Of a DNA stretch of 64,000 nt, positions 19,188 to 53,400 are shown one piece after another. The notes below the pieces were generated by a model, which was not told the origin of the DNA, ran no database searches, and worked only from the letters and a program-made list of their open reading frames with translations. Each line of letters opens with the position of its first letter. Positions within the stretch are counted from its first letter, which is position 1. The stretch is from contig CAWDWR010000003.1 in NCBI GenBank assembly GCA_963806085.1, positions 943,498-1,007,497 on the forward strand, written 5' to 3'. The stretch is from an uncultured Acidobacteriota bacterium. Lineage in GTDB: Bacteria; Acidobacteriota; Vicinamibacteria; Vicinamibacterales; JAKQTR01. A program made the position numbers and the translations under genes.

Positions 19188-19262
19188 ACCTGTCGGGATC
19201 GCCGCTGGAGAGGTTGTGTGCCCCGGGGGACCGGCCGTACACACAAAGGGCTGCAACCTCCC

Positions 19263-19291
19263 AATATGCTCCCTGCGGACCCTATTGTCAA
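19263..19291 (-). promoter_or_regulatory. Candidate sigma-70 promoter upstream of mutS2
   Basis: The minus strand reads TTGACA - 17 nt - CATATT, about 75 nt upstream of the mutS2 ATG. This is pattern only. Confidence 0.35.
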
Positions 19292-19301
19292 GGCGAAAGC
19301 G

Positions 19302-34535: not shown

Positions 34536-35713
34536 GTGACTACGACAGCCGAACCCAAGGTCGTCATCAGCGGGCGCGGCGAGGAGCGCGTGCGGGGCGG
34601 TCATCCGTGGATCTACCAGACCGACGTCGCCGACGTCAGCGCCTCCGGCGGCGACACGGTGGTCGTCCACAACCCGCGCGGGCGCATCGTGGGCCACGCG
34701 CTTTCAGCGACAGGTCTCAGATCGCCCTGCGCATGCTGACCATTGGCGAGGCGCACGGCGGGACTCGACCTGTGGCGTTCGCGCCTCGCGTCCGCCATCG
34801 CGTTCCGCCGCTCGCTCGACATCGACGCGACCGCGTGCAGGCTCGTGCACGGCGAGGGCGACCTGTTGCCGTCGCTGATCGTCGATCAGTACGGCGAGTA
34901 CCTCGTCGTGCAGGCCCTCTCCCAGGGCGTCGACCGCCTGCTGCCCGAGATCGTGGGATTGCTCGCCGACCAGGTGAAGCCGGCCGGCGTGCTCGCGCGC
35001 AACGACGTGCGCGTCAGGCTGCTGGAAGGGCTCGCATCGTCGGTCTCGCTCCTGCACGGCGAGGTGCCGGACGTGGTGCACGTGCGCGAGGGACGCACCG
35101 ATCACGAGGTCGATCTGTGGCACGGGCAGAAGACCGGCCTCTTCCTCGACCAGCGCGAGAACCGCGTCGCCGCCCGCGCCTACGCCCGGGGCCGGATGCT
35201 CGACTGTTTCAGCTACCACGGCGCCTTCGCCCTGCAGCTCGCCGACCGCTGCGAGTCGGTCGTGGCCCTCGACGTGTCGGAAGAGGCCGTGGGCCGCATC
35301 CGCAGCAACGCAGCGCGCAACGGGATCGCCAACGTCGAGGCGCGGCTCGCCAACGTGTTCGACGCGCTGAGGCAGATGGAACGCGACCGCGAGCGCTTCG
35401 ACACCATCGTGCTCGACCCGCCCGCCTTCGCGAAGAGCAAGGACGCCGTCGAGAAGGCCTGGGCCGGCTACAAGGAGATCAACCTCCGCGCGATGAAGCT
35501 GCTCAGCCCCGGCGGCGTGCTCGTCACCTGCACGTGCTCCTATCACGTCGACGAAGCCTCGTTCGGCCAGATCGTCTACGAGGCGTCGATCGACGCCCGC
35601 GCGCGCATGGCGGTGCGTCGAGAAGCGAATGCAGTCGCGCGATCACCCCGTCGTGCTCGGGCGTGCCGGAGACCTACTACCTGAAGTGCTTCATCCTGCG
35701 GAAGCTCTCATAG
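34536..35713 (+). CDS. rlmI: RlmI-like class I SAM-dependent 23S rRNA m5C methyltransferase, frameshifted in this assembly
   Basis: The N-terminus [10 protein letters not shown] is PUA-like. Also [18 protein letters not shown] and [12 protein letters not shown]. The C-terminus is restored in another frame as [16 protein letters not shown]. Confidence 0.75.
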
Positions 35714-37707: not shown

Positions 37708-38547
37708 ATGGGAAACACGATCAAGACCGCATTGTTGCTGGGGCTGATGAGCGGCGTGCTGCTGGTGCTCGGGGACTACCTGGGCGGGTCCGGCGGCCTG
37801 ATGATGGCGTTCGTCTTCGCCGTGATCATGAACTTCGCCTCGTACTGGTTCTCCGACAAGATCGTCCTGGCGATGTACAAGGCGCAGCCGGTGGGTCCGG
37901 AGCATCCCCTTTACCAGATCACCGCTCGGCTGGCGCAGCGCGCCGGATTGCCGATGCCGAAGGTCTACATCATTCCCGACCAGTCGCCCAACGCGTTTGC
38001 GACCGGGCGCAACCCGTCGCACGCGGCCGTGGCGGCCACCGAGGGCATCCTCCGGCTGCTCGACGAGCGTGAGATCGAAGGCGTCCTCGCGCACGAACTG
38101 GCCCACGTGAAGCACCGCGACATCCTGATCAGCTCGATTGCGGCCACGATGGCTGCCGCGATCATGATGGTGGCGCGGATGGCGCAGTTCGCGGCGATGT
38201 TCGGCGGCGGCAGCCGCGACGACCGCGAGGGCGGCTCGAACCCGATCGCGCTCCTCGCGACGGTGATCCTGGCGCCCATCGCCGCGATGCTCATCCAGGC
38301 GGCCATCTCGCGCTCACGCGAGTTCGGCGCCGACAGGGGCGGCGCGGAGATCGCCGGCACGCCGTACGGCCTGGTCGACGCCCTCAAGAAGCTGGAGTTC
38401 GCGTCGAAGCGTATCCCGATGGACGCGAACCCCGCGACGGCGCACATGTTCATCATGAAGCCGTTCAGCGTGCACGGGATGCTCTCGCTGTTCAGCACCC
38501 ACCCGCCGACCGAGGCCCGCGTCCGCGCCCTGCTCGGGCAGGCGTAA
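37708..38547 (+). CDS. htpX: Zinc metalloprotease HtpX
   Basis: Intact 279 aa. Motifs: HELAHVKHRD (HExxH), NAFATG, REFGADRGGAEI. TM helices are present. Confidence 0.92.
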   Translation: MGNTIKTALLLGLMSGVLLVLGDYLGGSGGLMMAFVFAVIMNFASYWFSDKIVLAMYKAQPVGPEHPLYQITARLAQRAGLPMPKVYIIPDQSPNAFATGRNPSHAAVAATEGILRLLDEREIEGVLAHELAHVKHRDILISSIAATMAAAIMMVARMAQFAAMFGGGSRDDREGGSNPIALLATVILAPIAAMLIQAAISRSREFGADRGGAEIAGTPYGLVDALKKLEFASKRIPMDANPATAHMFIMKPFSVHGMLSLFSTHPPTEARVRALLGQA

Positions 38548-38551
38548 AGAT

Positions 38552-38586
38552 CGGGACTCGGGATTCGGGATTCGGGATTCGCGAAC
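38552..38586 (+). repeat. Single-arm heptamer array (CGGGATT)n, G-rich on the htpX sense strand
   Basis: cgggact cgggatt cgggatt cgggatt cgcgaac starts 5 nt after the htpX stop. It fits G3N4G3N4G3N4G3. It shares its tail CGCGAAC-YGCRACGCC with the inverted copy at 60444-60478. Confidence 0.8.
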
Positions 38587-38705
38587 CGCACGCCCCGGGC
38601 GCAGCCTTGACGATGGCCTGCCACAGGCATTCGGCAGGCCTGGCTGCCGGCTCCTCCGTTCCGCCGCCTCTGGCCGCTGAATGCTAGAATCAGCCGTTCA
38701 GCTCC

Positions 38706-39707
38706 ATGGAGGGAGCCGCGATGCAGAACAACCTTCTTTCCAGGCGTGCGTGGTTGCGTGCGGCGGGCGGAGCCGCCGTTCTCGGTGCCATCCCGTTCAG
38801 GAGCTCCAAGGCCTCGGCCCAGGCGGGCCGCAAGCCGAACTCCAAGGTGGCAGGCGTTCAGCTGGGTGTCACCACCTACAGCTACGGATCGATGCCCCAC
38901 AAGGTCGATGACGTGGTTCAGTACCTGCTCTACGCGGGAGTCAATTCCATCGAGCTTCGCAACGTGGCGGAGGAGGACCTCGGCATCCCCGAGATCCCGC
39001 GCCGGCCGCGCGGCGGCGCGCCGCTCACCGAGCAGGAGAAGGCGGAGCTTGCCAAGGCCGCCGAATCGATCCGGGCAGCGCAGCGGCAGTGGCGCCTGTC
39101 GCTGCCGATGGAACGCTACGCGCAGATGCGCAAGAAATTCAACGATGCGGGCATCGAGGTCTACATCGCCAAGTTCGCGCCGTCCGCGTGGTCCGACGAG
39201 GAAATCGACTACGCCTACACGGCCGCGAAGACACTCGGCTCGATTGGCATCACGGACGAGCTGAGCGAGCAAGCCTGCAGGCGTCTGGGCACCTTCGCGG
39301 AGAAGCACAAGAGCCTGGCGATGTTCCACACGCACGGCCAGGTAGCGGACGCCGGGTTCTCCTTCGACAAGTACCTCGCCTATTCGCCGGCCAACCTGCT
39401 GAACCTGGATGCCGGCCACTACTTCGGGGCGACCGGCCTGCATCCGAACGACGTGATCGTGAAGTACCACGACCGGATGCGCAGCATCCACATCAAGGAC
39501 AAGACCGGGCCGAAGCACGCCACGCCGAACGCGAACAAGCCCTTTGGCCAGGGCGAGACGCCGATCGCGGACGTCCTCCTGCTGCTCAAGAAAGAGCAGT
39601 GGCCGATCAGGGTCGACGTCGAGCTGGAGTATCCGATCCCGGAAGGCTCCGACGCGGCCAAGGAAACGAAGAAGTGCATCGACTACATGAGGAACATCCT
39701 CGAGTAG
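38706..39707 (+). CDS. TAT-exported sugar phosphate isomerase/epimerase (xylose-isomerase-like TIM barrel)
   Basis: Intact 333 aa. The twin-arginine signal reads LLSRRAWLRAAGGAAVLGA. TIM-barrel-like segments include LGVTTYSY, IELRN, HIKD. Confidence 0.75.
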   Translation: MEGAAMQNNLLSRRAWLRAAGGAAVLGAIPFRSSKASAQAGRKPNSKVAGVQLGVTTYSYGSMPHKVDDVVQYLLYAGVNSIELRNVAEEDLGIPEIPRRPRGGAPLTEQEKAELAKAAESIRAAQRQWRLSLPMERYAQMRKKFNDAGIEVYIAKFAPSAWSDEEIDYAYTAAKTLGSIGITDELSEQACRRLGTFAEKHKSLAMFHTHGQVADAGFSFDKYLAYSPANLLNLDAGHYFGATGLHPNDVIVKYHDRMRSIHIKDKTGPKHATPNANKPFGQGETPIADVLLLLKKEQWPIRVDVELEYPIPEGSDAAKETKKCIDYMRNILE

Positions 39708-39717
39708 CCGGGACGCC

Positions 39718-39761
39718 GGGGTCAGCCGCCGATTGCGGGTGACTGACCCCGTTCTCGGGGG
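39718..39761 (+). terminator. Stem-loops just after the isomerase stop (candidate terminator, no U-tract)
   Basis: GGGGTCAG (39718-39725) pairs with CTGACCCC (39743-39750). An overlapping alternative hairpin is CCCCG ttct CGGGG (39747-39760). Confidence 0.35.
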
Positions 39762-39787
39762 ACACGTCAGTTACGGGGGAACAAGAT

Positions 39788-40249
39788 AAGGCCGCCGAGT
39801 GGCGGGCGAAGCTGCCGAAGCCCGCCGCACAGGCGCCGGTAAAGTGATCCCTCCCACCCAGCGGGCGAGGACGTGATCACCTGACGTGTCACCGAACACA
39901 TGTTTGTCGAGACGCGCGTTCGCCCAAGTCCCGATGCGAAATCGATCCGGTTCTTGAGACTTTCGGAGCGCAGAATCCAGGGGGATTCTTGAGACGCTGG
40001 CCGGCAGCCGCCATGGGTAGGGTGAGGCAAGAGCGCACCGCGGGTGTCTCAATTGGCCGAGGGGTGCACGCTGATGGCCCGGAAGGCTTCACCGCGGCAT
40101 GACAAGGTCGAGCCTCGACACGGGTTCGAATCCCCGAGGGGAGTGCGGCAAGGGTGGCAGGGGGCCCCTCGCACGCGGATCGCCGGCCGGGTGGATCGCG
40201 CCGCGAAGAGCGTGCGCTGGTTCGAATCCGGTCATCCCGGACGCCAGCC
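39788..40249 (+). ncRNA. Structured non-coding stretch with an RNase P S-domain-like motif and two T-loop modules; identity unresolved
   Basis: There is no credible ORF. 40006-40044 reads AGCCGCCAUGGGUAGGGUGAGGCAAGAGCGCACCGCGGG, which resembles bacterial RNase P ..CCGCCGAUGG..GGUAAGGGUGAAAGGGUGCGGUAAGAGCGCACCGCG. T-loop motifs lie at 40122-40135 (GGGTTCGAATCCCC) and 40216-40232 (GCTGGTTCGAATCCGGT). Helices include GGCGGGC/GCCCGCC and TTGAGAC/GTCTCAA. I could not find the canonical CR-I GGAAAGUCC or a P4 pairing. Confidence 0.3.
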
Positions 40250-40274
40250 CCTATTTGACGAACCACCGCGCCGT

Positions 40275-40946
40275 TCACGACAGCAGGAAGGGCCTCATCG
40301 GCGCCCACCGCTTTTTCCAGACCAAGGGTACAAGCAGTCGAGTCACGATGAATGGCATTCCCCTGGCAAACATCGCCCGTTCCTCCGGCGGGAGGTTGTA
40401 TAGGAGAAACGGCACGACGAGATAGTCCGGCCCCGTATGCTTTCGGCCGTGCTCCGCAAACAGCCCGCTCAGCCTCGTGTGCTCTTCCGGCGCGAGCAGG
40501 GGTCCGACCTTGTCAGGTGCAAAATGGCCTTGCTCAACCCCAATGTGGGGATGCCATATCTCGGCGATCCTCCTTAAGAACCCATTCAGCTTGTTTAGCG
40601 AAGCAGCGTCCTGTGGATCGCCTGCCACGTCCTCAACCGCGAGCTTGATTTGATCCAAGATGTGCACCAGTTCCTGGTGTTGGGCAATCAGCAGGTCGTA
40701 CGGCGCATCCGGCAACTTCGCTCGCAGGTAGGGGAACACCAGTTCCTCCTCCGTGAGGTGGTGCGCATGGAGCACCGAAACAAAACTCCGGGCGTAGCCG
40801 ATGAACCCTTCCCGCGTTGACGCATCGGGAAAGCCCTCTCGAGCAAACACCAGACTCTTCTCGGTGGCCACGTTCAAGCCACGCGTGATGATCGAGTGGA
40901 TACTGAGCAAATCCAACGCCACATTGGGTGCCCTCGTCTCAGCCAT
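40275..40946 (-). CDS. Hemerythrin-like (HHE cation-binding) domain protein
   Basis: Intact 223 aa with SD GAGGAGG upstream. His/Glu ligand patterns include SVLHAHHLTEEELVFPYL and IWHPHIGVEQGHF. GC is visibly lower (about 57-58%) than the flanking genes. Confidence 0.65.
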   Translation of the reverse strand: MAETRAPNVALDLLSIHSIITRGLNVATEKSLVFAREGFPDASTREGFIGYARSFVSVLHAHHLTEEELVFPYLRAKLPDAPYDLLIAQHQELVHILDQIKLAVEDVAGDPQDAASLNKLNGFLRRIAEIWHPHIGVEQGHFAPDKVGPLLAPEEHTRLSGLFAEHGRKHTGPDYLVVPFLLYNLPPEERAMFARGMPFIVTRLLVPLVWKKRWAPMRPFLLS

Positions 40947-41156
40947 CTCCGCCTCCTCGAATGTAGTGGTTCTGATGCAGCGCTGCTACCGCGCTGGCTG
41001 CCGTTTCTTCTCCGAGGCTCTGGGCTGCTCCTAAACGGTACAAGCTTCTTCTCTGCGCATGCGCGGCCAATTCTCTGATCCGTTGCCAACAGACATTCTT
41101 GCGTCAAAGCACGAATCCCCGCCTTGGACCTCCGGCTTGCGCATCATAGGCTCCTA

Positions 41157-41870
41157 CCGACCTTGAGACAATGCGTTCGCCACCAGAGCAGGCCCTGGCT
41201 TCTCCCGAGGCTTCGCCTCGACCACCGGAGGAGGGGAGTCAGCGGGAGCGTCGGGCCTCTTCAATCCGGGAAACGCTCTGCGAATCGCAGCGGCTTCGTC
41301 TTCGAGTTCCTTCAACCGCGCAATCGCGCCAGTTTCTCGAACTCGTGCTCAACGGGCGCATCACGATCACGCGAGGGAGGAACCGGCTCGGCTTCGACAC
41401 GCACCGCGTCCGGATCCCGCTCCGGCTGGATCGACTCTTCGAGGGCAAATTGTCAATTCGTGTGGCGTCCCCGACGGGATTGCCCATGTCGGACGGGGTT
41501 GGAGGGCTACTGCGCAGAGCCGCCTGAAGGTTCAGGCGTACACGACGAGGGTCGCCGCGGCGGCACGGGATTCCGTCAATCCCGCACCCGCCGCTTGCAG
41601 ATCCAAATGGTCTGGGTTGGGAGGAAGTCCAGGATCTTCACCGTCTCGAAGTCGGCATCCTGAAGCTGTCGGACAGTCTGGTGGAGGACGGACTTCGTAT
41701 CCTGCTCGGGTATCTCCGGATTCCCGGGACGTGAACTGGCTGAGGGAGCGCTTCTGACGCACCCCCGGGCGTGGTCATCGGCGGCTCCTGGGTCCCCAGG
41801 ACCTCCAGAGTACCGAGCAGGCCCAGCACCAGCCAGCCACATGTCGTCCATGCCCTCGCCTGATCCATGT
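41157..41870 (-). pseudogene. Decayed ORF fragments, including a sigma-70 region-4-like HTH segment and an acidic coiled-coil fragment
   Basis: IPEQDTKSVLHQTVRQLQDADFETVKILDFLPTQTIWICKRRV fits the ECF sigma region 4 pattern. Downstream fragments read EHEFEKLARLR / LKELEDEAAAIRRAF...ALSQGR. These are spread over three frames and no region 2 was found. Confidence 0.25.
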
Positions 41871-42430
41871 CCGCCTCCCCGGCTGTTACTCAATCAGACG
41901 ACGCAGCCAGGTCCGCGGCTGCAAGGAGCGACGCTGGACAAGCGCAAAGATGTGTATCAAGACTGCGACACCGAGCCGCAGCCGAGGGACGCCGCACCGT
42001 GCTGGGGGAGTAGACGTCACTTCGGCGGCTGGGCCGACGGGCCGCACCTCACGGGGGGACTCTCACGCGGCCCTGTCCGCGGTCGTAGCAGGCCCCTCGA
42101 GGGGGAGACCCGTGTTCGCGAGCGTCAAAGCGGATGACGACGCGCTTGAGTCGCCGTCTCATCAAACCTCTCCGGATCTCGGCTACAGGAACCCACGAAC
42201 TCGGAACAATTCCATATGGTTCCGCGCGTCGGCGCGTGTACCGACAAGCATCCGATTCTCGAGACGGTGGACCGGGCCTAAGCACTGGGAGAGGTCGTCT
42301 GACCGCCGAATGGGCCACGTCACCCGTGTGATGGTCGCGTGCCCGAGCCGCGAGCTCCCTCAGGCATCGCCCGCACGCACGTGGTCGCCCCCGCGGACGG
42401 ACGACCGAATCTGGATTGGTTTTCGACGTT

Positions 42431-44388
42431 CTAGGCTGAAGTTCCACGTGATGGTGTGACAGATCTCCTCCGCTGTCAACGAGATCGCGGGCGGAGGCGT
42501 CGACGGTTTCTGACTACGTGACCGTGATCGTCTGGATCAGATCCAAGGCACGGCGCTGCGTGGCGGTTGGCGTCGTCGTCATGGTGAAGGTGGCCGCCTC
42601 GGCGCTCTCTCGCGGCCGACAGTGATTGCGGACGATCGCGCGGAGATCCTGCAGGAGGGTGCGGAAGCTGTGGACTGGGTCCCCCGCCGAGGTGCGGTGG
42701 GTGGCGGCCTTCGCGTCGGCGGCGGGTGAGCGGGTGGCGCGCGCCACCGGATCGCGCGTGGCCTTGGCCGCCTGATCCTCATCGGCAAAGAGCAGCGGCC
42801 GCCACACCTCGCGCAGGTGCCACTCGACGTAGTACGCCAGCATGCAGAGGAAGATGTGGCTACGCACGCGATCGGCGGTGCGATGGTGAATCGGCCGGAC
42901 GTGGAGGTCGATCGTCTTGAGACACCGAAACGCCCGTTCGACCTGGCTTAACGCCTTGTAGGTGCGGACCGTCTCGGCGTCATCCATCCGCGCGCGCGGG
43001 AGATTGGTGCGAATCACGTAGATCCCATCGAGCGCGGCTTCGGTGGTGATCGAGGTGCGCTTGCGCGTATAGGTGAAGCGACCCGCGCGGATCGTCAGCG
43101 CGAAGTGTTTCGCGACCTTGTATTTGTTGATGACGCGGCCGACCCGCACGCCGATGGCGGCGCGGTCCCGGAGGCGTCCCCGCGCAATCATGCGGTCGAC
43201 CGTGGCGAGCTCCGCCTCCGTCGCGGCCAGCAGCGCCTCGCGTTTATGCGTCCGGCGCGCCGCGAGGTCCGGATTCCGGCACGCAATCAGTCGCTCGCCG
43301 GGATACGCGGGACTGGTCAGGGCGCAGCGGTCGCGATCGTCGAAGAGGCCGAGTTGGAGCGGCCCGTCGGTATAGAGCTGTCGGATGGAGGCGCTCTTCA
43401 GCGCGGTGATCCACGCGACCCCGTCGAGGGTCTTCAGCGTGTCGATCGTGGCCTGGGCGATCATGCCCCGATCCCCGACCAGCACCACCTCCCGAATCCC
43501 AAAGGTCTCGCGGACGCGCTGCACCTGGGCCAGCACCGTCTGGCTGTCGGCGACATCGCCGTCGAAGACCGACACGGCGACCGGGCACCCGCGGCCGTCG
43601 GTGACCAGCCCGTAATTGACCTGGAGTTTGTCGCGCTTGCCGTCGCGGCTGTAGCCGCGTTTGGCCAGCGGGCAGGTCGTGCCTTCCAGGTAACTGGAAC
43701 TCAGGTCGTAGAGCACCAGCCCCCCCTGCGTGAGGTGGCGGGCCGCGAGCGCCTTCTCGATCTGCGGTTGCCGGGCGAGCAACCAGTCCATCGCCGCATA
43801 CAGGTCGTCCTCGGACGCCGCCTGCACGCCGAGATCCTCGGCCACGGTGGAAGTCTGCCACCATCGCGTTGTGGCCAACTTCGTGTGGGGCTCGAGCACC
43901 CGCGCGGCAATCAGGGCCTGCATCCGCGCTGCTTCCGGCGTGCGGCGCGATCCCAAGAGGCGCGCCAGCCCGACCCGGTCCATGGCCGCGAGTACCGCCT
44001 GCGCATCGCCGTGCGCCACGGAGCGAACCACCTCGATCGCCTCGGCGGGCAGCACAGCCTCGCCGCGCAGCGCGCGACGGATCCACGCAATCAAGGGGCG
44101 CGGCAGATGCGAGAGATTGCCGACCGTTTCGTTGCGCACGGCCGCCCCGTCGCGGTAACTGCGGCGGAGCAGGTGGGTCTCGTAGACCTTGCCTTTGTAG
44201 TGCCGTGTTGTGGTGACGACATGCACCGCGCCAGATCGTCGTGGCATCGGTAGATAATACTCATCGCCCCGCCGTCTGTCAAGGCTATTAGTGACTACAT
44301 TTGACAACAGGAAAAAGGCCAGAACCCCACGGATTCTGGCCAGAAACCGCTTCAATGCGAGGCTAACGTGTACGGAACTTCAGTCTAG
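42431..44388 (-). mobile_element. IS1634-family (IS4-like) insertion sequence, about 1.96 kb, apparently complete
   Basis: The terminal inverted repeats are CTAGGCTGAAGTTCC (42431-42445) and GGAACTTCAGTCTAG (44374-44388), matching at 14/15. They enclose one intact transposase ORF. Confidence 0.75.
42514..44247 (-). CDS. IS1634-family DDE transposase
   Basis: Intact. The likely start is MPRRSGAVHVVTTTRHYKGKVYETHLLRRSYRDGAAVRNETVGNLSHLP. Also LVLYDLSSSY, VLVGDRGM, YKALSQVERAFRCLKT, RVRSHIFLCMLAYYVEWHL. Confidence 0.8.
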   Translation of the reverse strand: MPRRSGAVHVVTTTRHYKGKVYETHLLRRSYRDGAAVRNETVGNLSHLPRPLIAWIRRALRGEAVLPAEAIEVVRSVAHGDAQAVLAAMDRVGLARLLGSRRTPEAARMQALIAARVLEPHTKLATTRWWQTSTVAEDLGVQAASEDDLYAAMDWLLARQPQIEKALAARHLTQGGLVLYDLSSSYLEGTTCPLAKRGYSRDGKRDKLQVNYGLVTDGRGCPVAVSVFDGDVADSQTVLAQVQRVRETFGIREVVLVGDRGMIAQATIDTLKTLDGVAWITALKSASIRQLYTDGPLQLGLFDDRDRCALTSPAYPGERLIACRNPDLAARRTHKREALLAATEAELATVDRMIARGRLRDRAAIGVRVGRVINKYKVAKHFALTIRAGRFTYTRKRTSITTEAALDGIYVIRTNLPRARMDDAETVRTYKALSQVERAFRCLKTIDLHVRPIHHRTADRVRSHIFLCMLAYYVEWHLREVWRPLLFADEDQAAKATRDPVARATRSPAADAKAATHRTSAGDPVHSFRTLLQDLRAIVRNHCRPRESAEAATFTMTTTPTATQRRALDLIQTITVT

Positions 44389-44505
44389 GCGCGACGCTTT
44401 CCTGCAATCCACCCCTGGTCCAAGCTGTCAGCCGATGCCTACTCCTGGCGCGTGACGGAGAAGCGGCGCACGCACGGATTCGACTCGACCTGCGCGCGCG
44501 CCTGT

Positions 44506-45423
44506 TCACAGCAAATAGGCGAGGGCGAAGCCGACCTGGGCGACGAACATCATGCGGTACATGTGCGCCCACGACACGTGGTTCTCCTCCACGGCCAGGT
44601 CGTCCGGACGGCGCAGCATCAGGTAGCACACATACAGCCCGTAGGCGGTCATGAACGCGCCGAGCGCCTGCAGCAGCCAGAAGTTGCCCGTCAGCACGCC
44701 GGTCCACGCGCCGATCGGGATCATCAGGAACGGGAGCACGAACGACGGCGAGATCATCCACGCCGCCTTCGTGACGCCGAACTGGATCGGCAGCGTCCGG
44801 CAGCCCCCGCGGGCGTCGCCGTCCATGTCGGCAAAGTCCTTGGTCGTCGTCGCGCCGAGCAGGAATAGTCCGAAGATCGCGCCGAGGAACCACGGCTCGA
44901 ACCCCATGGCCGTCTTCACCGACGACCACCCGGCCACTTTCAGCAGGACGCCCCGCGGGATCGCGATCGTCACGTTCGCCCAGATGCCGAGCCGCTTCGT
45001 CCGGAACGGCGGCACCGAGTAGAGCGTCGTGATCGCCCCCGCCGCCAGCACCATCCAGAAACACTCGTGGCGTCCGCCTGGCGCGACGAACCACGCCAGC
45101 ACAAACGCCAGAACGAAGCTCGCAATCGTGACCACCCACGCCTCGCGCATCGACAGGCGCCCGCTCGGGAGCGGCCGCTTCGGCTTGTTGATGCGGTCGA
45201 TGTCGAAGTCGTAGATCTGGTTCAAGCCGTTGGAGGCGATGTTCAGCACCGCCGCCATGAGGGCGCCGATGGCCGGCGCGGCCAGCAGTCCCCAACTCCA
45301 CGGCTCCCGCGGGTGTGCGCCGATCGCCGTCGCCGCGGCGGACGCGAAGCCCAGCGCGGGAGCGATGAGCGTGAACGGCCGGGCGAAATCGACGAGGGTC
45401 CTTACGCGCGACGTGTCGCTCAC
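44506..45423 (-). CDS. UbiA-superfamily aromatic prenyltransferase, homogentisate phytyl/prenyl-transferase-like motifs
   Basis: Intact. The GTG start overlaps the upstream stop (GTGA). The first Asp-rich motif is NGLNQIYDFDIDRINKPKRPLPSG and the second is KDFADMDGDARGGCRTLPIQFG. There are 8-9 TM helices. Confidence 0.75.
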   Translation of the reverse strand: MSDTSRVRTLVDFARPFTLIAPALGFASAAATAIGAHPREPWSWGLLAAPAIGALMAAVLNIASNGLNQIYDFDIDRINKPKRPLPSGRLSMREAWVVTIASFVLAFVLAWFVAPGGRHECFWMVLAAGAITTLYSVPPFRTKRLGIWANVTIAIPRGVLLKVAGWSSVKTAMGFEPWFLGAIFGLFLLGATTTKDFADMDGDARGGCRTLPIQFGVTKAAWMISPSFVLPFLMIPIGAWTGVLTGNFWLLQALGAFMTAYGLYVCYLMLRRPDDLAVEENHVSWAHMYRMMFVAQVGFALAYLL

Positions 45424-46130
45424 GACATCCTCACGATCGCGATCGCGACAATGGCGCCCGTCGCGGTGTTGATGAAGTTCAGAAGATCGTTGTTGACGAT
45501 GCCCGACGCCTCGAGCGTCGCGGCCAGGGCGCTCTCGAGGACGGACCCGGCGATTGCCCCGGCGACCACCGCCCACACCGTCCATGCCGGAACGAGTCCA
45601 AGGAGCGCGCCGCACCCCGCCAGCGCCAGCGCGCCGAGAATGCCGGCCGCCGATCCTTCGAGCGACACCGCGCCGGGCGTGCCCGGCCGCACCTCGGCGA
45701 GCGTGGCCGGCAGGTACGTCTTTCCGCCCCAGGCCTTGCCGATCTCGCTTGCCACCGTATCGCCGCCGCCCGTGGCCAGGGCGGCGACGAACGCAAGCAG
45801 AGCGGCCTCACGATAAGGCGTCGCCACCGCCGCGGCCGCCGCGATCGCGGCGAGCCCCGTGTTCGCGAACGCGTTGCCCCCGCCACGCCGCCCTTCGCGC
45901 TCTTCCGCGATGCCGAGCAGCGCCTTCTTCTTCATTCCCAGCCGCGAGGTCACTGTCGCGGTCGCGAATGTGAGGAACAGCAGCGCCCATCCCCCGAAGC
46001 CGAGCGAGGCGAACACCGCCACGCCGATGGCCCAGCCGACGAGCATGCCGGACAGTCGCACGGTTCGCGCCAGATAGCCGCCGAGCGCCGCAACCGTGTT
46101 CACGACGATGGCCGGCACCAGGTTGGCCAT
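45420..46130 (-). CDS. DUF92/TMEM19-family membrane protein (the family of plant VTE6 phytyl-phosphate kinase)
   Basis: MANLVPAIVVNTVAALGGYLARTV..VTSRLGMKKKA..RRGGGNAFANTG..TGGGDTVASEIGKAWGG..GAVSLEGSAAGILG. Its start overlaps the upstream stop (TGATG). Confidence 0.65.
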   Translation of the reverse strand: MANLVPAIVVNTVAALGGYLARTVRLSGMLVGWAIGVAVFASLGFGGWALLFLTFATATVTSRLGMKKKALLGIAEEREGRRGGGNAFANTGLAAIAAAAAVATPYREAALLAFVAALATGGGDTVASEIGKAWGGKTYLPATLAEVRPGTPGAVSLEGSAAGILGALALAGCGALLGLVPAWTVWAVVAGAIAGSVLESALAATLEASGIVNNDLLNFINTATGAIVAIAIVRMS

Positions 46131-46758
46131 CACGCCGTCGACATGTCCGACGTCCACGCCGCCGCCGTTACGAGGCTGCACAGCCAGAGCACCGCGCCGG
46201 CGGTGGCGGGCACCGAAATGTTGTCGTCGAGCGCGATCGGGATGGTCTCCACCAGCCCCGCGGCCGCGGCGGCGATGACGGGCGCGATCAGGATGAACGT
46301 CATCGACGGCGGCGGCGTCACTGCCGGGGCCGTCCACCAGGCTAAGCAGCACCGCCGCGGCCCCACCCAGGACGACGAAGGCGAGCCATGCCCTCCACCG
46401 TCTTCCCGGGGTTCCAACTCAAGCGGTGGCGTCCCCACCGCCTTCCCGCGAGCGTCGCTGCCCCGTCGCCGATGGCCAGAATCCCCCACGCGCCCGCCGC
46501 GATGTCGAGCCGGGCCGGAAAGGCGAGGATGAGCAGCAGCACGCTGACGGGATAGATGAGGATCCCGCTCGGGTAGCCGCGCGAAACGTCGGCCGGCCGG
46601 AGGATGGCGCGTCCTCCGGTCCGCGGCAGGACGACGGCGTTGAAGACCAGTGCCGCAACCGCAAAGAGCGCCGCCTGCCACCACGTCAGCACCCGCAGCA
46701 GCAGCGCGAACGCGCCCATCGACATGTGCACGAGCTGGCGCGCGGTCTCGGAGAACAT
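46130..46758 (-). CDS. Polyprenol/phytol kinase-like membrane protein (VTE5/dolichol-kinase/CTP-transferase-1 type), frameshifted in this assembly
   Basis: Segments: QLVHMSMGAFALLL, GILAIGDGAATLAGRRWGRHRLSWNPGKTVEG. The C-terminus in another frame is LVETIPIALDDNISVPATAG. Confidence 0.55.
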
Positions 46759-46760
46759 CT

Positions 46761-47711
46761 TCAGGCTGCGTCCGGGACGGCAAGAAGCGCCCTGACCAGC
46801 CGCGCCACGCCCTCCTCGAGGGGCGTCACGCGGTAGCCAAGTTCCTCGGAAGCACGAGCGTGCCCGAGGGGCCAGTCCCGCAGCAGGATCTCCAGTGTTC
46901 CTGTCGTGATGAGCGGCGCCCGCCGGAATCCCTCCGCCAGCAGCTCATAGGCGAAGGCCGCCGGCGATGCCAGCCAGTCGGGGATGCGCCGGGGCTGCGC
47001 GCGCCCGGTCAACTGCCTCACGATGTCGAAGACACGCATCTGCGGGGCATCCACCCCGCCAAGCGGATAGCGCGCACCGGGCGTGCCAGCTTCCAGGGCC
47101 GCGACGTGCGCCGCCGCGACATCGTCGACGAAGGAGAAAGACCAGATGCGATCGCCGCCGATCACGCCGGGCAGCCGCCTGGCCAGATGATCCCGGACCA
47201 TGCCGCCGACCAGGTTGCCTTCCGTTGCGGCGCCCGGGCCGTAGATCACGCCGGGATACAGCCGGATGATCGGGGCGCCCTGCCGCACGGCGGCCTCGGC
47301 GAGCCTGTTGGCGGCGGACTTGGTCCGCTGGTAGTCGTTCCAGTCCGGCGCCGCCTCGAGGCCGGCGGGCGTCAGGGCGAGGAACGACGAGGTGTAAACC
47401 AGGCGCCTGATGTTGTGGCGGGCCGCGGCACGGAGGATGGTCTGCAGCGCGCCCACGTTCACCTCGTCGAAATCGCCGCGTCGGGGCCTCCACGTCGCAA
47501 CCAGCGCCGCGCTGTGCAGGATCGCCCCGCACCCCCGGGCCGCATCGCTGAGCCGGGTCGCATCGCGGACGTCGCCGTCGACGGCAGAGGCGGGCAGGCC
47601 TGACCTGCTCGCGCTTCTGCCGTAGAGCACGACGTCGTGCCCCGATGCGCAGAGCGCGCCGACAACGGCCCGCCCGAGGTAGCCGGTCCCGCCGGTGACC
47701 AGGACCTTCAT
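46761..47711 (-). CDS. NAD-dependent epimerase/dehydratase family protein (extended SDR)
   Basis: Intact. Motifs: MKVLVTGGTGYLGRAVV and YQRTKSAAN (YxxxK). The stop lies 3 nt from the downstream kinase start. Confidence 0.75.
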   Translation of the reverse strand: MKVLVTGGTGYLGRAVVGALCASGHDVVLYGRSASRSGLPASAVDGDVRDATRLSDAARGCGAILHSAALVATWRPRRGDFDEVNVGALQTILRAAARHNIRRLVYTSSFLALTPAGLEAAPDWNDYQRTKSAANRLAEAAVRQGAPIIRLYPGVIYGPGAATEGNLVGGMVRDHLARRLPGVIGGDRIWSFSFVDDVAAAHVAALEAGTPGARYPLGGVDAPQMRVFDIVRQLTGRAQPRRIPDWLASPAAFAYELLAEGFRRAPLITTGTLEILLRDWPLGHARASEELGYRVTPLEEGVARLVRALLAVPDAA

Positions 47712-47718: not shown

Positions 47719-48681
47719 TCACGCCGCGCGCCGCCAGTAGGCCAACAGGTCGCGGAGAGTCTCGTCGAGGGGCACGCGCGGCTCCCAGCCGGTCGCCTCC
47801 GTGATGCGCGACGGATCGCCAAGCAGCAGCGGCGTGTCGTTCGGGCGGAAGCGTTCGGGGTCGGGCCGGACGTCGACGCGGACACGCGCGTCCGCGACGA
47901 TGGCATCGAGCAGGTCGCGCATCCGTGAGGCGCGGCCCGAGCAGACGTTGTACGCGCAGCCCGGGGTCCCGTGCTCGGCGAGGGCCCGATAGGCGCGCAC
48001 CGTATCGCGCACGTCCGTGAGGTCTCGGCGGCTTTCGAGGTTGCCGACGCGGATGACCGGCTCCAGGCGGCCCGCCTCGATGAGCGCCACCTGACGCGCC
48101 ACGCCGGACGCGAAGAAGGACGGATCCTGGCGCGGCCCGATGTGGTTGAAGGCGCGGGCCACGACAGCGTGGAGGCCGTCGACGCGGGCGGCGCGAATGA
48201 CCGCCAGTTCGGTTGCCACCTTGCTGATGGCGTACGGGTTCGTGGCCTCGACGGCATCGTCTTCGTTGAGCGCCCGGTCGGCCGGGCGGTACACATAGGC
48301 CGAGCTCGGCACCACCACCCGGCTCGCAGCGCTTTCAAGCCGAATCGCCTCGAGCAGGGCGTGGGTGCCCATGACATTGACCGCGAGTGTCTCGGTGGCG
48401 GCCGACCAGGACTGCCCGACGTGAGGCACGCCGGCGAGGTGATAGACGGCGGCAGGCGCCGTCTCGGCCACCACCCTCCGCATCGCCTCGCGGTCGAGCA
48501 GGTCGATTTCCAGCCACGTGATCGCCGGGTAGGCGGCCTGCGTCTCCGCGCCGACACCCGGCTTGCGCAGGGCGACGATGCGCACGCCGTCCTGCGAGAG
48601 CAGGTCCAGCAAGTGGGACCCGGCGAAACCCGCGGCGCCGGTGACGAGGACGGTGGGCTGTCGGCTCATAGGCAGCGGCAT
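47719..48681 (-). CDS. NAD-dependent sugar-nucleotide epimerase/reductase (GDP-6-deoxy-mannose reductase-like SDR)
   Basis: Intact. Motifs: VLVTGAAGFAGSHLLDLL, NPYAISKVA, RAFNHIGPRQ, RDLTDVRD. Confidence 0.7.
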   Translation of the reverse strand: MPLPMSRQPTVLVTGAAGFAGSHLLDLLSQDGVRIVALRKPGVGAETQAAYPAITWLEIDLLDREAMRRVVAETAPAAVYHLAGVPHVGQSWSAATETLAVNVMGTHALLEAIRLESAASRVVVPSSAYVYRPADRALNEDDAVEATNPYAISKVATELAVIRAARVDGLHAVVARAFNHIGPRQDPSFFASGVARQVALIEAGRLEPVIRVGNLESRRDLTDVRDTVRAYRALAEHGTPGCAYNVCSGRASRMRDLLDAIVADARVRVDVRPDPERFRPNDTPLLLGDPSRITEATGWEPRVPLDETLRDLLAYWRRAA

Positions 48682-48697: not shown

Positions 48698-49717
48698 CTA
48701 CGCCCCGGTCCTGGCCGAGTACTGCGCCTTGTAGTAGGCCTGGAAAGCCGGGTCTTCGTGCTTGATCGGCCTCCACCACCACGGGCTGGCCTTGTACCAC
48801 TCGACCGTGGCCGCGAGCCCGTCTGCGAACACATGCCGGGGAGTCCACCCGAGCGCCCGCAGCTTCGCGGTGTCGAGGGCGTACCGCCGGTCGTGGCCGA
48901 GCCGGTCGGCCACCGGGCGGATCAGCGTGTCCGGCTTGCCGGTCAGTTGAAGGATGCGCCGCGTGAGATCGACGTTCGGCACCTCGTTTCCGCCGCCGAT
49001 GTTGTAGACCTCGCCGTCGGCGCCCTTGTCGATCACCAGGTCGATGGCCGAGCAGTGGTCCTCGACGTGCAGCCAGTCGCGCACGTTCATCCCGTCGCCG
49101 TACAGCGGCAGGTCGCGGTCCTCGAGGGCATTGGTGATGAAGAGCGGGATCACCTTCTCGGGAAACTGGTACGGCCCGTAGTTGTTCGACGCGCGCGTGA
49201 CGACGACAGGCACCTGGTAGGTGGCCCAGTAGCTGTACGCGAGGCGGTCCGCGCCGGCCTTGCTGGCCGAGTAGGGATTGCGCGGCCGCAGTTCGTCGGT
49301 CTCCTTCGAGGCGCCGGTCGGGACCGAGCCATAGACCTCGTCGGTCGAGATCTGGATGAAGCGGCGCAGGCCGGTGGCCTGGCGGGCCGCCTCGAGCAGG
49401 GCGAAGGTGCCGAAGACGTCGGTGTGGATGAACGCCCCGGCGCTCTGCAGGGATCGATCCACGTGGGTCTCGGCCGCGAAGTGCACCACGACGTGCGAGC
49501 CCCTCACGAGCGGGGCGCTGACGGCACTGTCGGCGATGTCGCCCAGCACGAACGTGTGCCGCGGGCTGTCGAGCACGTCGTGCAGGTTCTCGAGGCGGCC
49601 GCAGTAGGTCAGCTTGTCCAGCGTGGTGACGTGCCAGTCCGGGTGCGTGCGCAGGGCGAAGCGCACGAAGTTGCTGCCGATGAACCCGGCGCCGCCGGTG
49701 ACGAGTACCTTGACCAT
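48698..49717 (-). CDS. rfbB: dTDP-glucose 4,6-dehydratase
   Basis: Intact 339 aa. Motifs: VLVTGGAGFIGSNF, FIQISTDEVYG, NPYSASKAGADRL, GDGMNVRDWLHVEDH. Confidence 0.9.
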   Translation of the reverse strand: MVKVLVTGGAGFIGSNFVRFALRTHPDWHVTTLDKLTYCGRLENLHDVLDSPRHTFVLGDIADSAVSAPLVRGSHVVVHFAAETHVDRSLQSAGAFIHTDVFGTFALLEAARQATGLRRFIQISTDEVYGSVPTGASKETDELRPRNPYSASKAGADRLAYSYWATYQVPVVVTRASNNYGPYQFPEKVIPLFITNALEDRDLPLYGDGMNVRDWLHVEDHCSAIDLVIDKGADGEVYNIGGGNEVPNVDLTRRILQLTGKPDTLIRPVADRLGHDRRYALDTAKLRALGWTPRHVFADGLAATVEWYKASPWWWRPIKHEDPAFQAYYKAQYSARTGA

Positions 49718-49745: not shown

Positions 49746-52083
49746 CTACCGGTAGACGCCCGTCGGGCTCATGTTGCCGAACGGCGGCGAGAACGACCCG
49801 ATTCCCGCCAGCGAGATGGAAATGCTGAAGCGGCGATCCTGCTGGACGGTCGGCGAGTAGACGCCGCCGTAGCTGTAGCCGCCGAAGTTGAACGTCTGGA
49901 ACTCGGCCGTCACGCCGCAGCACTGGGCGTTGTAGTACGCGAGGTACCGGCGCTGCAGGAAGTACGCGTTCTTGATGTCGTAGTTGAACGAGACGCCCAC
50001 GCCGTACCGGTTCTGGCTGAAGCGGAGGCTGGCGTCCGCGTTCAGGTAGTGGTTCGCGCGCGACGGGTCGTCGTAGCCGGAGAGGTTCGCGATGTAGCGC
50101 CGCTGGCTCCAGCCGGCCGACACCATGCCGTGCTCGCCCAGCATGTACGTGCCCGCGGCGCCCAGGGTCATGAACGCGTTCACGTACGTGTTGTACTCGG
50201 TCCGGAACGTCGCGTTCAGCTCGTCGGCGGGCGAGAACCTCGCCGCCAGCGAGACCGGCGACAGGCTCTTCGGCAGGACCGTGCCGAAACTGGTGGAGTA
50301 GTTGGGGTCGACGGCCGACGCCAGGGAATTCGTGTAGTAGGTCTGGCGGATGCCGACGTTGAGGATCTCGCGCGACCGGCCGCCGTCGGCGCCGCCCTTG
50401 CGCTTCGCGTACACGCGGTTGTTCAACCCGTACATGATCCGCGTCGTGCCGCCGACGATGTAGTCGGTCGAATCGAGGCGCACGATCCGGTTGTCGAGAT
50501 CGATCATCGTCACCCGCTGCAGGTTCACCCAGGGTTCGATGGTGTGCTTGATCTTCTCGGCGTAGCCGCTGTCGGGCGTGTTGTAGATCCGGTTCAGCAC
50601 CGGGCCGACGATGCGCGCCTGCAGATCGAAGTAGCTGCGGCTGATGGACTGGGGAACCTGCTGGCCGTTCACGGGGCTCAGGCTCTCGCTCCACCACGTG
50701 TAGCGCCAGCCCAGCGAGGAGTTCACGGTGAAGAAGGGAAACTTGCGCCACGGGAAGCGCAGCGTCGGCGTGGCGTCGACCCGCTGCAGGCCCGAGTCGT
50801 AGGTCGACGCGCCCGAGATCGTCTGCCGCACCATCGCCGAGTACTCGCCCGCCACGCCGAAGTAGACCGGCCACTTCTTGATCGGCTGCTCGCCTCGGCT
50901 GACCGACGACGCGCGGCAGCGCTCCCGAGACCGTCGAATCGTCCGCGTTGAAGAAGTACTGGCTCCGGTCGATCCAGGCGCCGACGCTGTACGGGCCGTA
51001 GTTGCCGCTCACGCTGCCGGAGAAGCTCCGCTGCCGCCTCGACGTGTCGTAGACGTTGGTGTTGTAGGTCCGCTGGACCGTGATGTCGGAGAAGTAGTCG
51101 AGGCGCAGGCGGCCCCGCAGCCTGAACGGGAGGTTCTGGGCCAGGTTCGCCGCGAGCGTCGAAACTGCGCCGCCCCGCCACGTCGACCGTGCCGCCCGTG
51201 CCGTCGGGCGCGGTGGTGGGCCGCTCGTTCAGCATGTAGAACCGCGCGTCGCCCGACGAGGACCGCGAGCGGACGTAGCGGTACTCGCTGCCGAACCCGT
51301 GGCCCGTCTTCGAGAACCAGTCGTAGTTGAACGTCGCGTCCTGGCTGCGGCTGATCGCCCAGAAGAACGCGTTGCTGATGGTGTTCCCCTTGAGCGTCGA
51401 CGTCGGTGTACATCGGCAGCAGGAAGCCGGTGGCCCGGTCCTCCTTGTTGATCGGGTAGTACATGATCGGCAGGTAGAGGACCGGCAGGCCCTTCACCCG
51501 CATCAGCGAGTTCTGCAGCATGGCGTAGTGGTCGATGTTCAGGATCACCGTCCCCGACGTGATCTCCCAGCGCGGCTTCGGCTGCACGCACGTCGTGAAG
51601 CCGCCGTCGGTGATCCGGTATCGCTTCTCGCCGATCTTCTCCAGCGTCTCGCCGTAGAAGAGCACCTCCGGCTCCTGCGTGCCGAAGACGCGCTTTTCGG
51701 CCGGCGGCTCCTGTTCCGGATGCAGGAGCGCGCTGCCCGACGCGTGATGGAACGTGCCGAGCTTCGTCTTCGTGTTGAACTCGAGCGAGTCGGCCGAGAT
51801 GCGCTGCGTCGGCGTCGTCACCGTGACGTTGCCCCGGGCGAGCAGCAGGTCGCGGTCGGTGAAGATTTCCACCTCGTCGGCGAAGATCTTCGTGTCGTCC
51901 TTGTCGATCTCGACGTCGCCGGTCAGCTTCCAGTGCGCGTCGCCGATGCGCTCGATGTACCACTGGCGCGCCGCGTCCACGCCCGGAATGGCCTGGCCGC
52001 CGGCCTGCTGCGCGAAGGCGCCCGCGGGCGCCAGCAGGGCCGCCAGCGCCAGCCACACGAGACGCGCGGGGCGGAGTCGTCAT
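49746..52083 (-). CDS. lptD: LPS-assembly outer membrane protein LptD/OstA, frameshifted in this assembly; start 52058 or 52083
   Basis: A signal peptide is present. The OstA-like N-domain reads KLTGDVEIDKDDTKIFADEVEIFTDRDLLLARGNVTV. Also GFLLPMY. A long beta-barrel region is rich in alternating aromatic residues and ends ..SLAGIGSFSPPFG. Confidence 0.8.
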
Positions 52084-52094: not shown

Positions 52095-53400
52095 TTACCA
52101 TGCCGGCGCCGCGGCTTTCGAGGCGCGGGAGCACGGCGCCGAGCAGGAAGATCGAGCCTGCGACGGTGATCGCCGGTCCGGCGCTCCAGGCGGCGTCGAG
52201 GGCGCCCTCGGGATCGGCGGCCACCATCACGTCCGCGCCGGGATCGATGGCCAGCGCCGCCGCTCTCAGGGCGCCGGGATCGGCGGCGCGCGGCGTCGGC
52301 GGCGCCGTGAGGACCACGCGCGATCGCGCACGGCAGCAGGCAGCCGGAGCATCCCGCCGTAGTCCTTGTCGCGCATCGCGCCAAAGACGAGCGGCTGGCG
52401 CCCGCCCGGCAGGGCCTCGCGCAGGTACTCGGCCAGCGCGGCCGCTCCCGCCTCGTTGTGCGCGGCGTCGAGCAGCACCCGCCGCCCGTCGGCGAGGCGG
52501 CGCCAGTCGAGCCGGCCGGGCCACCTCGCCTCGCGCAGCCCGCGTTCGATGGCGGCCGCGGCACCGCCAAGCCCTCTCCCGACAGCGCTTCGAGCAACCG
52601 CACGGCGACCAGCGCGTTCTGGACCTGGTGGCGGCCCCTCAGACCCAGCGTCAGCGGGCCGTAGGCCCCCGCCGGCGTGCGCAGCGTCATCGTCGTCTCG
52701 CCCTCTGTCATCGTCGCCTGCACCGACGCGCCTTCCGCCGCGTCGCACGAACCGCGCTCCGCTCCGCGCGCACGCGGCGGCGATCACGGCGCGCGGCCCG
52801 GCGGCCCGTTCACCGCAGACGAGCGGCATGCCGGGCTTGACGATCCCGGCCTTTTCGACGGCGATCGCTTCGAGCGTGCCGCCGAGATACTGCTGGTGAT
52901 CCAGCGCGATGTTCGTGATCGCGCCCGCGCGCGGCGAGGCCACCGACGTGGCGTCGAGACGCCCGCCCATGCCCACTTCGAGCACCGCCACCTCGCACGT
53001 CGCGCCGCCTGAACATCTCGAAGGCGGCGGCCGTGGCCACCTCGAAGAACGTCGGCGTCGCCTGCAGCCGCCCGTCCGTCCGCAGCCGGTCGATGAGCAC
53101 GCGCAGGTGCTCCACGACCTCCTCGAGCTCAGCGGGGGCCACCTGCACGCCGTCGATGGTGAAGCGTTCCTCGATGCGGACCAGGTGCGGCGAGGTGTAG
53201 CAGCCGGTCCGGTATCCGGCGGCCGACAGGGCCGCCGACGCCATCGCGCACACCGACCCCTTGCCGTTCGTGCCCGCCACGGCCACCGACGGACACGCGT
53301 CCTGCGGCCTGCCCAGCGCGTCCGTTATGACCCGGATGTTGTCGAGGCCCAGCTTGTGGCCGTGGAATTCGAGGCCGAAGAGATACTCAAGCGGGTGCAT
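52095..53400 (-). CDS. folC: Bifunctional folylpolyglutamate/dihydrofolate synthase FolC, frameshifted in this assembly
   Basis: Motifs: [62 protein letters not shown]. At least 4 frame changes. Confidence 0.85.

Follow-up and report, generated by a model that had tools for sequence, protein, structure and literature searches.

The DNA analysed here, referred to as the window, is a stretch of 64,000 nucleotides (nt) from contig CAWDWR010000003.1 of an uncultured member of the Vicinamibacterales (Acidobacteriota), and all coordinates below are positions in it. Its minus strand carries, between 46758 and 44506, a kinase-like domain, a DUF92 domain and a UbiA-superfamily prenyltransferase, which an earlier account made from the letters by themselves (the sequence-only reading) had taken for three membrane-protein genes overlapping start to stop. 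That arrangement does not hold. The kinase-like and DUF92 parts belong to a single gene (45420-46758) that is split over three frames in the window, as established by tblastn, by DNA alignment and by the intact open reading frames (ORFs) of relatives. The locus codes for two putative inner-membrane enzymes that are translated together, rather than for the products of three genes.

The prenyltransferase gene is intact (44506-45423, minus strand, 305 amino acids (aa)). The ORF listing and its translation place the GTG start at 45423, and the DUF92 frame on the same strand stops at 45420, within the same four letters, GTGA (45420-45423). The span that had been given to a first gene, 46758-46130, is 629 nt long, a number not divisible by three, and holds no ORF. 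The frame opened by the ATG at 46758 terminates at 46342, and the two motifs quoted for this gene, GKTVEG (within 46390-46470) and DDN (in LDDNISVP, 46208-46231), lie in separate frames of the window. These motifs do exist, as do the two quoted for the prenyltransferase (NQIYDFDIDRINKPKRPLPSG at 45160-45222 and KDFADMDGD at 44815-44841). In a frame plot of the G+C content at third codon positions, the coding frame of this 70% G+C sequence changes twice near 46340-46400 and again near 46150.

Clean relatives were found in a JGI contig (L004) and in three NCBI loci from metagenome-assembled genomes (MAGs) of Vicinamibacterales (L005, L006 and L007). In these four the gene order is accD-folC-lptD, then three genes for short-chain dehydrogenases/reductases (SDR1, SDR2 and SDR3), then a single gene of 444-445 aa, and then a UbiA gene of 305 aa whose first 4 nt are also the last 4 nt of the fusion gene. 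When the L005 fusion protein is aligned to the window by tblastn, the matching segments fall at 46758-46387, 46363-46154 and 46160-45423, in three frames. Alignment of the DNA to L004 and L005 places three insertions in the window: +1 near 46387, +1 near 46349 and +2 at 46149-46150. The kinase-like domain reads from ATG 46758 to 46387 in a first segment, in which translation and motif search locate a motif for binding cytidine triphosphate (CTP), GDGAATLAGRRWGRHRLSWNPGKTVEG. It continues past the first insertion (46385-46387, in the context GGC-A-TGG, where the frame switches) and the second (46347-46349) into a last segment at 46151-46346 (...WWTAPAV...ETIPIALDDNISVP...LWLCSLVTAAAW), which holds the DDN motif. 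The third insertion lies in the linker, after '...AAAW' and before 'GHVDGV(M)ANLVPA' / GHVDGVMANLVPA, ahead of the DUF92 domain at 45420-46148; in L005 the linker region, AWAGHADAVAANLVPA, is one continuous frame across this site. The letters TGATG at 46128-46132, which had been read as a stop/start overlap, are present, but the overlap is an artefact of the +2 insertion, because its ATG aligns to an internal residue of the relatives' ORF and its TGA is read out of frame; the frame truly changes about 20 nt further upstream. The GTGA overlap is genuine, the only real stop/start overlap of the two, is the same in L004 and L005, and couples the translation of the fusion gene to that of the UbiA gene.

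A single gene is also what most related loci show. Homologues of the hand-stitched first part all come from Acidobacteriota metagenomes, and several of them continue directly into DUF92. A scan with a profile of the N-terminal domain, run over one genome per GTDB species, gave 405 loci, and the best 80 were kept; all are from Acidobacteriota MAGs, mostly of Vicinamibacterales, with one labelled Betaproteobacteria. Counted over 83 loci (the best 80 of the 405 together with L004-L006), the kinase-like and DUF92 parts lie in one uninterrupted frame in 78. Two of the five non-fused loci are from long-read MAGs and two stop at a contig edge. UbiA stands immediately downstream of the fusion in 70 of the 71 loci that have at least 1 kb of flank, the listed exceptions having been inspected, and the overlap of the two genes, which the sequence-only reading had correctly reported, measures exactly 4 nt in 44 of 69. 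Every one of the 78 intact loci has an SDR gene directly upstream, at a median gap of 39 nt; how many SDRs there are, and of what type, differs between lineages. The order lptD-SDRs-fusion is kept across at least three Acidobacteriota classes. A Polarisedimenticolia MAG (L088) has lptD-SDR-SDR-fusion on a contig that ends inside the fusion, with UbiA out of view, and a more distant Acidobacteriota MAG (L087) has lptD...SDR...fusion-UbiA. Co-occurrence of the parts in other genomes, on which the earlier proposal depended, is near-universal in Vicinamibacterales and reaches other Acidobacteriota classes.

Three further loci deserve mention on their own account. L084 has an intact fusion and no UbiA in the 6 kb downstream, and is the sole true exception to UbiA adjacency; in L077 neither DUF92 nor UbiA is detectable behind the N-terminal domain. 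An apparent DUF92-UbiA fusion of 571 aa (P0251, L089:8001-9716) lies on a long-read contig of 4x coverage and was not used as evidence, since its stop may have been lost through an indel error; alternatively it may reflect a genuine tendency to join all three domains.

The model of a fusion protein (P0029) is one compact helical bundle with a predicted local distance difference test (pLDDT) score of 93.3 and a predicted template modelling score of 0.89, and Foldseek gave it only non-significant matches in the PDB, to CdsA and CarS. The components themselves are of known kinds; what appears to be new is that the kinase-like domain is fused with DUF92, that this fusion is tightly coupled to a UbiA protein of an uncharacterised family, and that the unit is conserved in abundant soil Acidobacteriota.

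The three breaks in the kinase gene are very probably assembly errors, because essential genes across the window carry errors of the same kind and three events do not exceed the background. Over about 20 kb of blastn alignment the window has 55 insertions and 20 deletions of a length that is not a multiple of three, some of which are real divergence in compensating pairs; they are mostly single bases and lie outside homopolymers. When L005 proteins are compared with the window by tblastn (28900-55100), FolC (52105-53400), LptD (49749-52010), serine hydroxymethyltransferase (glyA, break at 33498), a helicase (30750-32752), a methyltransferase (34536-35710) and a tetratricopeptide-repeat protein are each spread over two to four frames. 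The rate is about one such indel per 270 nt aligned, so that three in a 1.34-kb gene are no excess. Similar breaks at different positions are seen in other long-read MAG loci (L001-L003, L073 and L079), and the window comes from an insertion-prone and probably long-read assembly. That the gene is a real pseudogene in the source organism, or is expressed by programmed frameshifting, is very unlikely. Its three frame breaks do fall inside 240 nt, and UbiA has an insertion sequence (IS) element 118 nt downstream; against this, single-base insertions likewise break glyA, folC, lptD, the helicase gene and others, the indel density in the gene does not exceed the background, and the long-read relatives are broken elsewhere. 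Programmed frameshifting was rejected, as the break sites have no slippery motif in common and the same errors occur window-wide. Small ORFs and apparent gene overlaps in this window are unreliable and need to be checked against frameshift errors.

The N-terminal domain of the fusion protein belongs to the CTP-transferase/kinase superfamily and looks like a member of its kinase branch, an assignment that rests, as to the branch, on motifs. Neither the window fragments nor the hand-stitched first part has a match in Pfam (PF01148 included) or NCBIfam. PF01148 (CTP_transf_1) is found below threshold in four of eight diverse members, at best with E 2.7e-5 and 17.9 bits (threshold 24); one homologue, P0409, has precomputed assignments to both PF01148 and PF01940, and JGI gives many members the name 'dolichol kinase' or 'phytol kinase'. 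The window sequence GDGAATLAGRRWGRHRLSWNPGKTVEG (46390-46470) fits the pattern DXXAXXXGXXXGX8KKTXEG with exact spacing, a G replacing the first K (D-GA-A-TLA-G-RRW-G-RHRLSWNP-GKTVEG). This pattern is the CTP-binding motif of dolichol kinase (PMC13586052). A looser form of it is present in 61 of 78 homologues, and the ending E...LDDN[ILV][ST]VP, a DDN-type motif, in 73 of the 78 fusion homologues. We take an E...DDN..VP ending to be linked to kinases. The cytidylyltransferase signature of CdsA (KR..G.KD.G...PGHGG..DR.D, or loosely HGG..DR.D), the pattern of PROSITE PS01315, occurs in none of the 78 fusion proteins. The AlphaFold (AF2) model of the domain has a pLDDT of 93.5, and its top PDB neighbours by probability in Foldseek, CdsA and CarS, are non-significant (E 0.3-2.4); a profile of the domain finds nothing among PDB sequences at E<=10. 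The sequence-only reading had called this part a polyprenol or phytol kinase and had named a CdsA-type cytidylyltransferase as the identity that would speak against it; the exactly spaced dolichol kinase motif, the lack of the CdsA signature in the 78 proteins and the JGI names all agree with its choice.

For the second domain, assignment to DUF92, the family of VTE6 (phytyl-phosphate kinase), was correct: PF01940 matches it with 134.9 bits (gathering threshold 27.5) and an E-value of 4.1e-39. In the PlantSEED work the function of COG1836 was reportedly predicted from clustering or fusion with phytol-kinase genes in prokaryotes. TIGR00297 also matches the domain, though below its cut-off. The prenyl-phosphate kinase activity of the VTE6 type is known from plant genetics and biochemistry (PMC9782597).

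The prenyltransferase is a clear member of its superfamily (PF01040, 138.9 bits against a gathering threshold of 34.2, E 2.3e-40) and has the two Asp-rich motifs, NQIYDFDIDRINKPKRPLPSG (45160-45222) and KDFADMDGD (44815-44841). Such motifs bind Mg and diphosphate in the UbiA superfamily (PMC10617047). Homologues of about 305 aa with 82-95% identity number more than 100 among soil-metagenome proteins; a search of plasmid proteins gave only an annotated chlG with 31.6% identity. Placement within the superfamily was by score ranks of NCBIfam hidden Markov models. The archaeal prenyltransferase model PRK12884 gives 121.5 bits (cut-off 269), homogentisate phytyltransferase (HPT, NF009525) 120 bits (cut-off 226) with an alignment nearly end to end, ChlG (NF005742) 113 bits (cut-off 313), ChlG/BchG (TIGR01476) 92 bits (cut-off 212), and the two digeranylgeranylglyceryl phosphate synthase (DGGGPS) models 84 bits (NF009521, cut-off 296) and 66.5 bits (NF009522, cut-off 353). 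The ChlG, HPT and DGGGPS models match at about 1e-35. The UbiA and CtaB models give 40-47 bits and the EboC model 39 bits (cut-off 250); MenA and DPPR synthase are outside the 25 best families, a list that extends down to E 3.5e-6. Among solved structures ChlG comes closest (1e-16), followed by DGGGPS (1e-15). When 1.84 billion cluster representatives (50% clustering) were searched exhaustively, 193 representatives of the family came out at E<1e-30, and of ten diverse full-length relatives none reaches a curated cut-off and nine show the same sub-threshold pattern, with HPT scores of 88-126 bits among those tested. Because the window protein and the ten relatives miss all curated cut-offs, we place it in a separate family, as yet uncharacterised, within the ChlG/HPT/DGGGPS group and at an equal distance from these three. 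The sequence-only reading had described it as homogentisate-type, closer to the homogentisate transferases than to MenA, UbiA or CtaB. It is indeed far from those three, but the label homogentisate-type is not supported, as HPT (120 against a cut-off of 226) ties with ChlG (113) and PRK12884 (121.5). The RPLPSG of its first motif is presumably nearer to ChlG and DGGGPS than to the LPLASG of HPT.

Relatives of the prenyltransferase at 41-54% identity stand in other surroundings. Two of them (P0211 and P0342) are UbiA proteins fused to a PF01663 phosphodiesterase and one (P0230) carries a fatty-acid-desaturase domain. At L090:7124-10862, among Wzy_C and PMT_2 genes, a polyprenyl diphosphate synthase lies directly upstream of the UbiA-phosphodiesterase gene, in the position held in Acidobacteriota by the kinase fusion. 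Such a synthase provides prenyl diphosphate de novo, which fits an upstream partner that supplies the prenyl diphosphate donor. At L092:1-16870 the neighbours of a UbiA gene are three B12-radical-SAM genes, PhoD and PMT_2. Such surroundings point to lipid or envelope products, and the loci (P0211, P0342, P0230, L090 and L092) look like further uncharacterised isoprenoid-lipid clusters; the neighbourhood of P0354 (L091) held nothing informative. The UbiA-PF01663 fusion of P0211 and P0342 is the same pairing as in the ebo operon, where EboC is a UbiA-family enzyme and EboF a PF01663 phosphodiesterase (PMC5133447). The EboC model, however, gives the window protein only 39 bits against 250, and a phosphodiesterase, a cyclase and a TatD partner are all missing from the Acidobacteriota unit.

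Taken together, we consider it reasonably probable that the unit serves the salvage of an isoprenoid alcohol. In the proposed scheme, the N-terminal domain would be a CTP-dependent kinase of the dolichol/phytol-kinase type that converts a prenol to its monophosphate, the C-terminal DUF92 domain would convert the prenyl phosphate to prenyl diphosphate within the same bifunctional protein of about 445 aa, and the coupled 305-aa UbiA protein would transfer the prenyl group to an acceptor. The natural fusion of two kinase-like domains strengthens the idea of a route from prenol to prenyl diphosphate, and we infer the two kinase activities, with flux running from the alcohol towards transfer. The substrate is likely to be C15-C20, for example geranylgeraniol or phytol, the chain length being our inference as well. 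Because the unit closes an lptD-SDR array that is conserved across Acidobacteriota, its product is probably a lipid of the membrane or envelope. A more specific picture can be drawn, in which Acidobacteriota make a so far undescribed prenylated membrane or envelope lipid (for example a DGGGP-type ether or a prenylated quinol) from a salvaged alcohol, possibly phytol or geranylgeraniol from plant litter, by way of the bifunctional kinase and with expression tied to the lptD operon; in this full form it is speculative and, on the whole, unlikely.

The closest parallel is phytol salvage in plants and cyanobacteria, where VTE5, VTE6 and VTE2 or ChlG follow the same logic of alcohol to phosphate to diphosphate to transfer (PMC9782597). 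There VTE5 and VTE6 (DUF92/COG1836) feed VTE2 (HPT), ChlG and MenA; both kinase families recur here in the same logical order, a UbiA protein of the ChlG/HPT/DGGGPS group comes next, and the CTP-binding motif is present. In the acidobacterium, however, a single polypeptide carries both kinase-type domains, with the prenyltransferase coupled to it at translation, the host is not phototrophic and the unit lies within an lptD/sugar-SDR array, the UbiA protein is no orthologue of VTE2, ChlG or MenA (the NCBIfam cut-offs are missed), and there are no tocopherol genes nearby. With dolichol kinase (SEC59/DOLK) and the CTP_transf_1 superfamily, which includes CdsA and CarS, the N-terminal domain shares the motif DXXAXXXGXXXG-X8-(K)KTXEG and a polytopic helical fold, CdsA and CarS being its nearest, non-significant PDB neighbours. 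It differs from DOLK in having about 200 aa and about 7 helices where DOLK has 15 transmembrane segments, and from this group at large in falling below the Pfam threshold, lacking the C-terminal signature of CdsA and being fused to DUF92. The prenyltransferase resembles ChlG (PDB 9SAU/9SAS) and archaeal DGGGP synthase (PDB 6M31), both of which use C20 prenyl diphosphate donors, in the motifs N..YD.DID.IN.P.RP.PSG and D....GD, and these are its closest solved relatives (1e-16 and 1e-15); it differs from them by an identity of only about 30%, by the separate family and by the lack of chlorophyll or glycerol-1-phosphate (G1P) lipid genes nearby.

Several points weigh against the salvage scheme. 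The N-terminal domain stays below threshold in Pfam and NCBIfam alike, no solved structure matches it significantly, and its CTP motif is common to cytidylyltransferases of the same superfamily. TIGR00297 stays below its cut-off of 205.85, with 151 bits for the window and 143.5 for the L004 fusion, and the biochemical support for VTE6-type activity is from plants only. The window UbiA is below every curated cut-off for characterised enzymes. Genes for HPPD, a tocopherol cyclase, 2-methyl-6-phytyl-benzoquinol (MPBQ) methyltransferase, GGGPS or G1P dehydrogenase are found neither in the window nor in the conserved flanks; for HPPD, cyclase and methyltransferase this agrees with what had been noted from the letters. 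Why a non-phototroph should need a kinase route to prenyl diphosphate is puzzling, and simple salvage does not explain the tight and deep linkage to lptD and sugar-nucleotide SDRs.

Among other explanations, the acceptor could be homogentisate, with a tocopherol- or plastoquinol-like benzoquinol made from salvaged phytol by three coupled genes and a homogentisate-type prenyltransferase. The salvage logic would be identical to that of the scheme we favour, homogentisate is common in soil bacteria, NF009525 aligns over almost the whole length with 120 bits, and the KD..D..GD form of the second UbiA motif is HPT-like. We nevertheless consider this improbable, as the three-gene structure is an artefact, the score of 120 falls far short of the cut-off (226) and is level with ChlG (113) and PRK12884 (121.5), the nearest solved structures are those of ChlG and DGGGPS, ten diverse family members are below every equivalog cut-off, and neither the window nor the conserved flanks hold an hppD, cyclase or MPBQ methyltransferase gene. 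Equally improbable is an archaeal-type ether-lipid module, in which a DGGGPS-like UbiA would put an isoprenoid chain on a glycerol phosphate derivative, the N-terminal domain would activate the product as a CarS/CdsA-like cytidylyltransferase, and DUF92 would be an accessory. In its favour, DGGGPS is one of the two nearest solved structures (1e-15), JGI calls some relatives (for example P0212 and cluster members P0353-P0355) 'geranylgeranylglycerol-phosphate geranylgeranyltransferase', CdsA and CarS are the folds that come nearest to the N-terminal domain when ranked by probability, and UbiA relatives that lie beside B12-radical SAM proteins and phosphatases (L092) or are fused to PF01663 would fit a phosphorylated lipid. 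Yet those fold matches are non-significant (E 0.3-2.4), the DGGGPS models, at 84 and 66 bits, fall short of their cut-offs (296 and 353), and the N-terminal domain has, in place of the CdsA signature (0 of 78), the E...DDN..VP ending that we associate with kinases. None of the inspected flanks has a gene for GGGPS or G1P dehydrogenase, and the fusion to DUF92 is left unexplained.

A further explanation is a carrier pathway for the cell envelope, in which the kinase-like domain would regenerate polyprenyl phosphate from a polyprenol, a DPPR-like UbiA would load a sugar phosphate onto it, and the SDRs would modify the lipid-linked sugar for lipopolysaccharide or another glycan. The order lptD-rfbB/SDRs-fusion-UbiA is kept in Vicinamibacteria and L087, and up to the fusion in L088, an SDR is always directly upstream of the fusion, and UbiA relatives adjoin GT-C (PMT_2) and Wzy_C genes and phosphatases. 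DPPR synthase provides a UbiA-family precedent for the use of prenyl phosphate (PMC5133447). It is, however, outside the 25 best NCBIfam matches, among which ChlG, HPT and DGGGPS stand at about 1e-35. A monophosphate carrier would have no use for a second kinase step by DUF92, yet the domains are fused nearly everywhere, and the number and type of the SDRs vary by lineage; we regard this explanation, too, as improbable, if marginally less so than the two preceding ones. Salvage of a prenol to its diphosphate, followed by UbiA transfer, remains the explanation that we prefer.

The natural fusion of a VTE5/dolichol-kinase-like domain with DUF92 constitutes "Rosetta-stone" evidence and suggests that DUF92 proteins, including human TMEM19, act right after a prenol kinase. 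We know of no prenyl-phosphate kinase identified outside plants. The salvage pathway for farnesol and geranylgeraniol has been termed "missing" (PMC9782597). A bacterial polypeptide with both kinase steps would be a convenient enzyme for characterisation. Among soil bacteria, Vicinamibacterales and other Acidobacteriota rank with the most abundant, and conservation of the unit in such an order means that a novel prenylated lipid is probably widespread in soils, which bears on the reading of isoprenoid lipid biomarkers.

Upstream of the fusion gene, the array of lptD, rfbB and two SDR genes was as the sequence-only reading had described it. All four are on the minus strand. SDR3 (46761-47711) is an extended SDR of HpnA/OleD/3-beta-HSD-like type, with 169.6 bits to HpnA, below the cut-off, and a weak thioester-reductase match. 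Its stop is 2 nt before the fusion ATG in the window, and in L004 the gene (L004:7717-8670) overlaps the fusion start; it may act in the same pathway as the fusion, and this type of SDR is missing from many loci and lineages. SDR2 (47719-48669) is a generic NAD-dependent epimerase/dehydratase, and SDR1 (48698-49717) a dTDP-glucose 4,6-dehydratase and RfbB equivalog (TIGR01181, 442 bits against a cut-off of 365). The first gene of the conserved array, lptD (49749-52010), is found by tblastn in four frame segments in the window and is intact in L004 and L005 (783 aa). No gene for a polyprenyl synthase was detected in the window.

Downstream of UbiA the window departs from its relatives. The IS element (42431-44388) has terminal inverted repeats of 15 nt (CTAGGCTGAAGTTCC / GGAACTTCAGTCTAG) and a transposase of the DDE_Tnp_1 type (613 aa, 42514-44355, minus strand), and lies 118 nt beyond the UbiA stop. 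From UbiA to htpX (M48 peptidase, 37708-38547) the distance is about 6 kb (38548-44505), against about 100 nt in L005 and L007; besides the IS element this interval holds a hemerythrin-domain ORF (40275-40946) and an ORF for a xylose-isomerase-like TIM-barrel protein with a twin-arginine translocation (TAT) signal (38706-39707). A further stretch of about 1.5 kb (40950-42430) shows neither a clear ORF nor an Rfam match, and Rfam found nothing in 38000-47500. The rest of the window is housekeeping in character, with ftsQ, ftsA and ftsZ at 2818-6297, a sigma-70 factor at 13228-14130, mutS2/Smr at 16699-19301, lepA at 23056-23895, and glyA.

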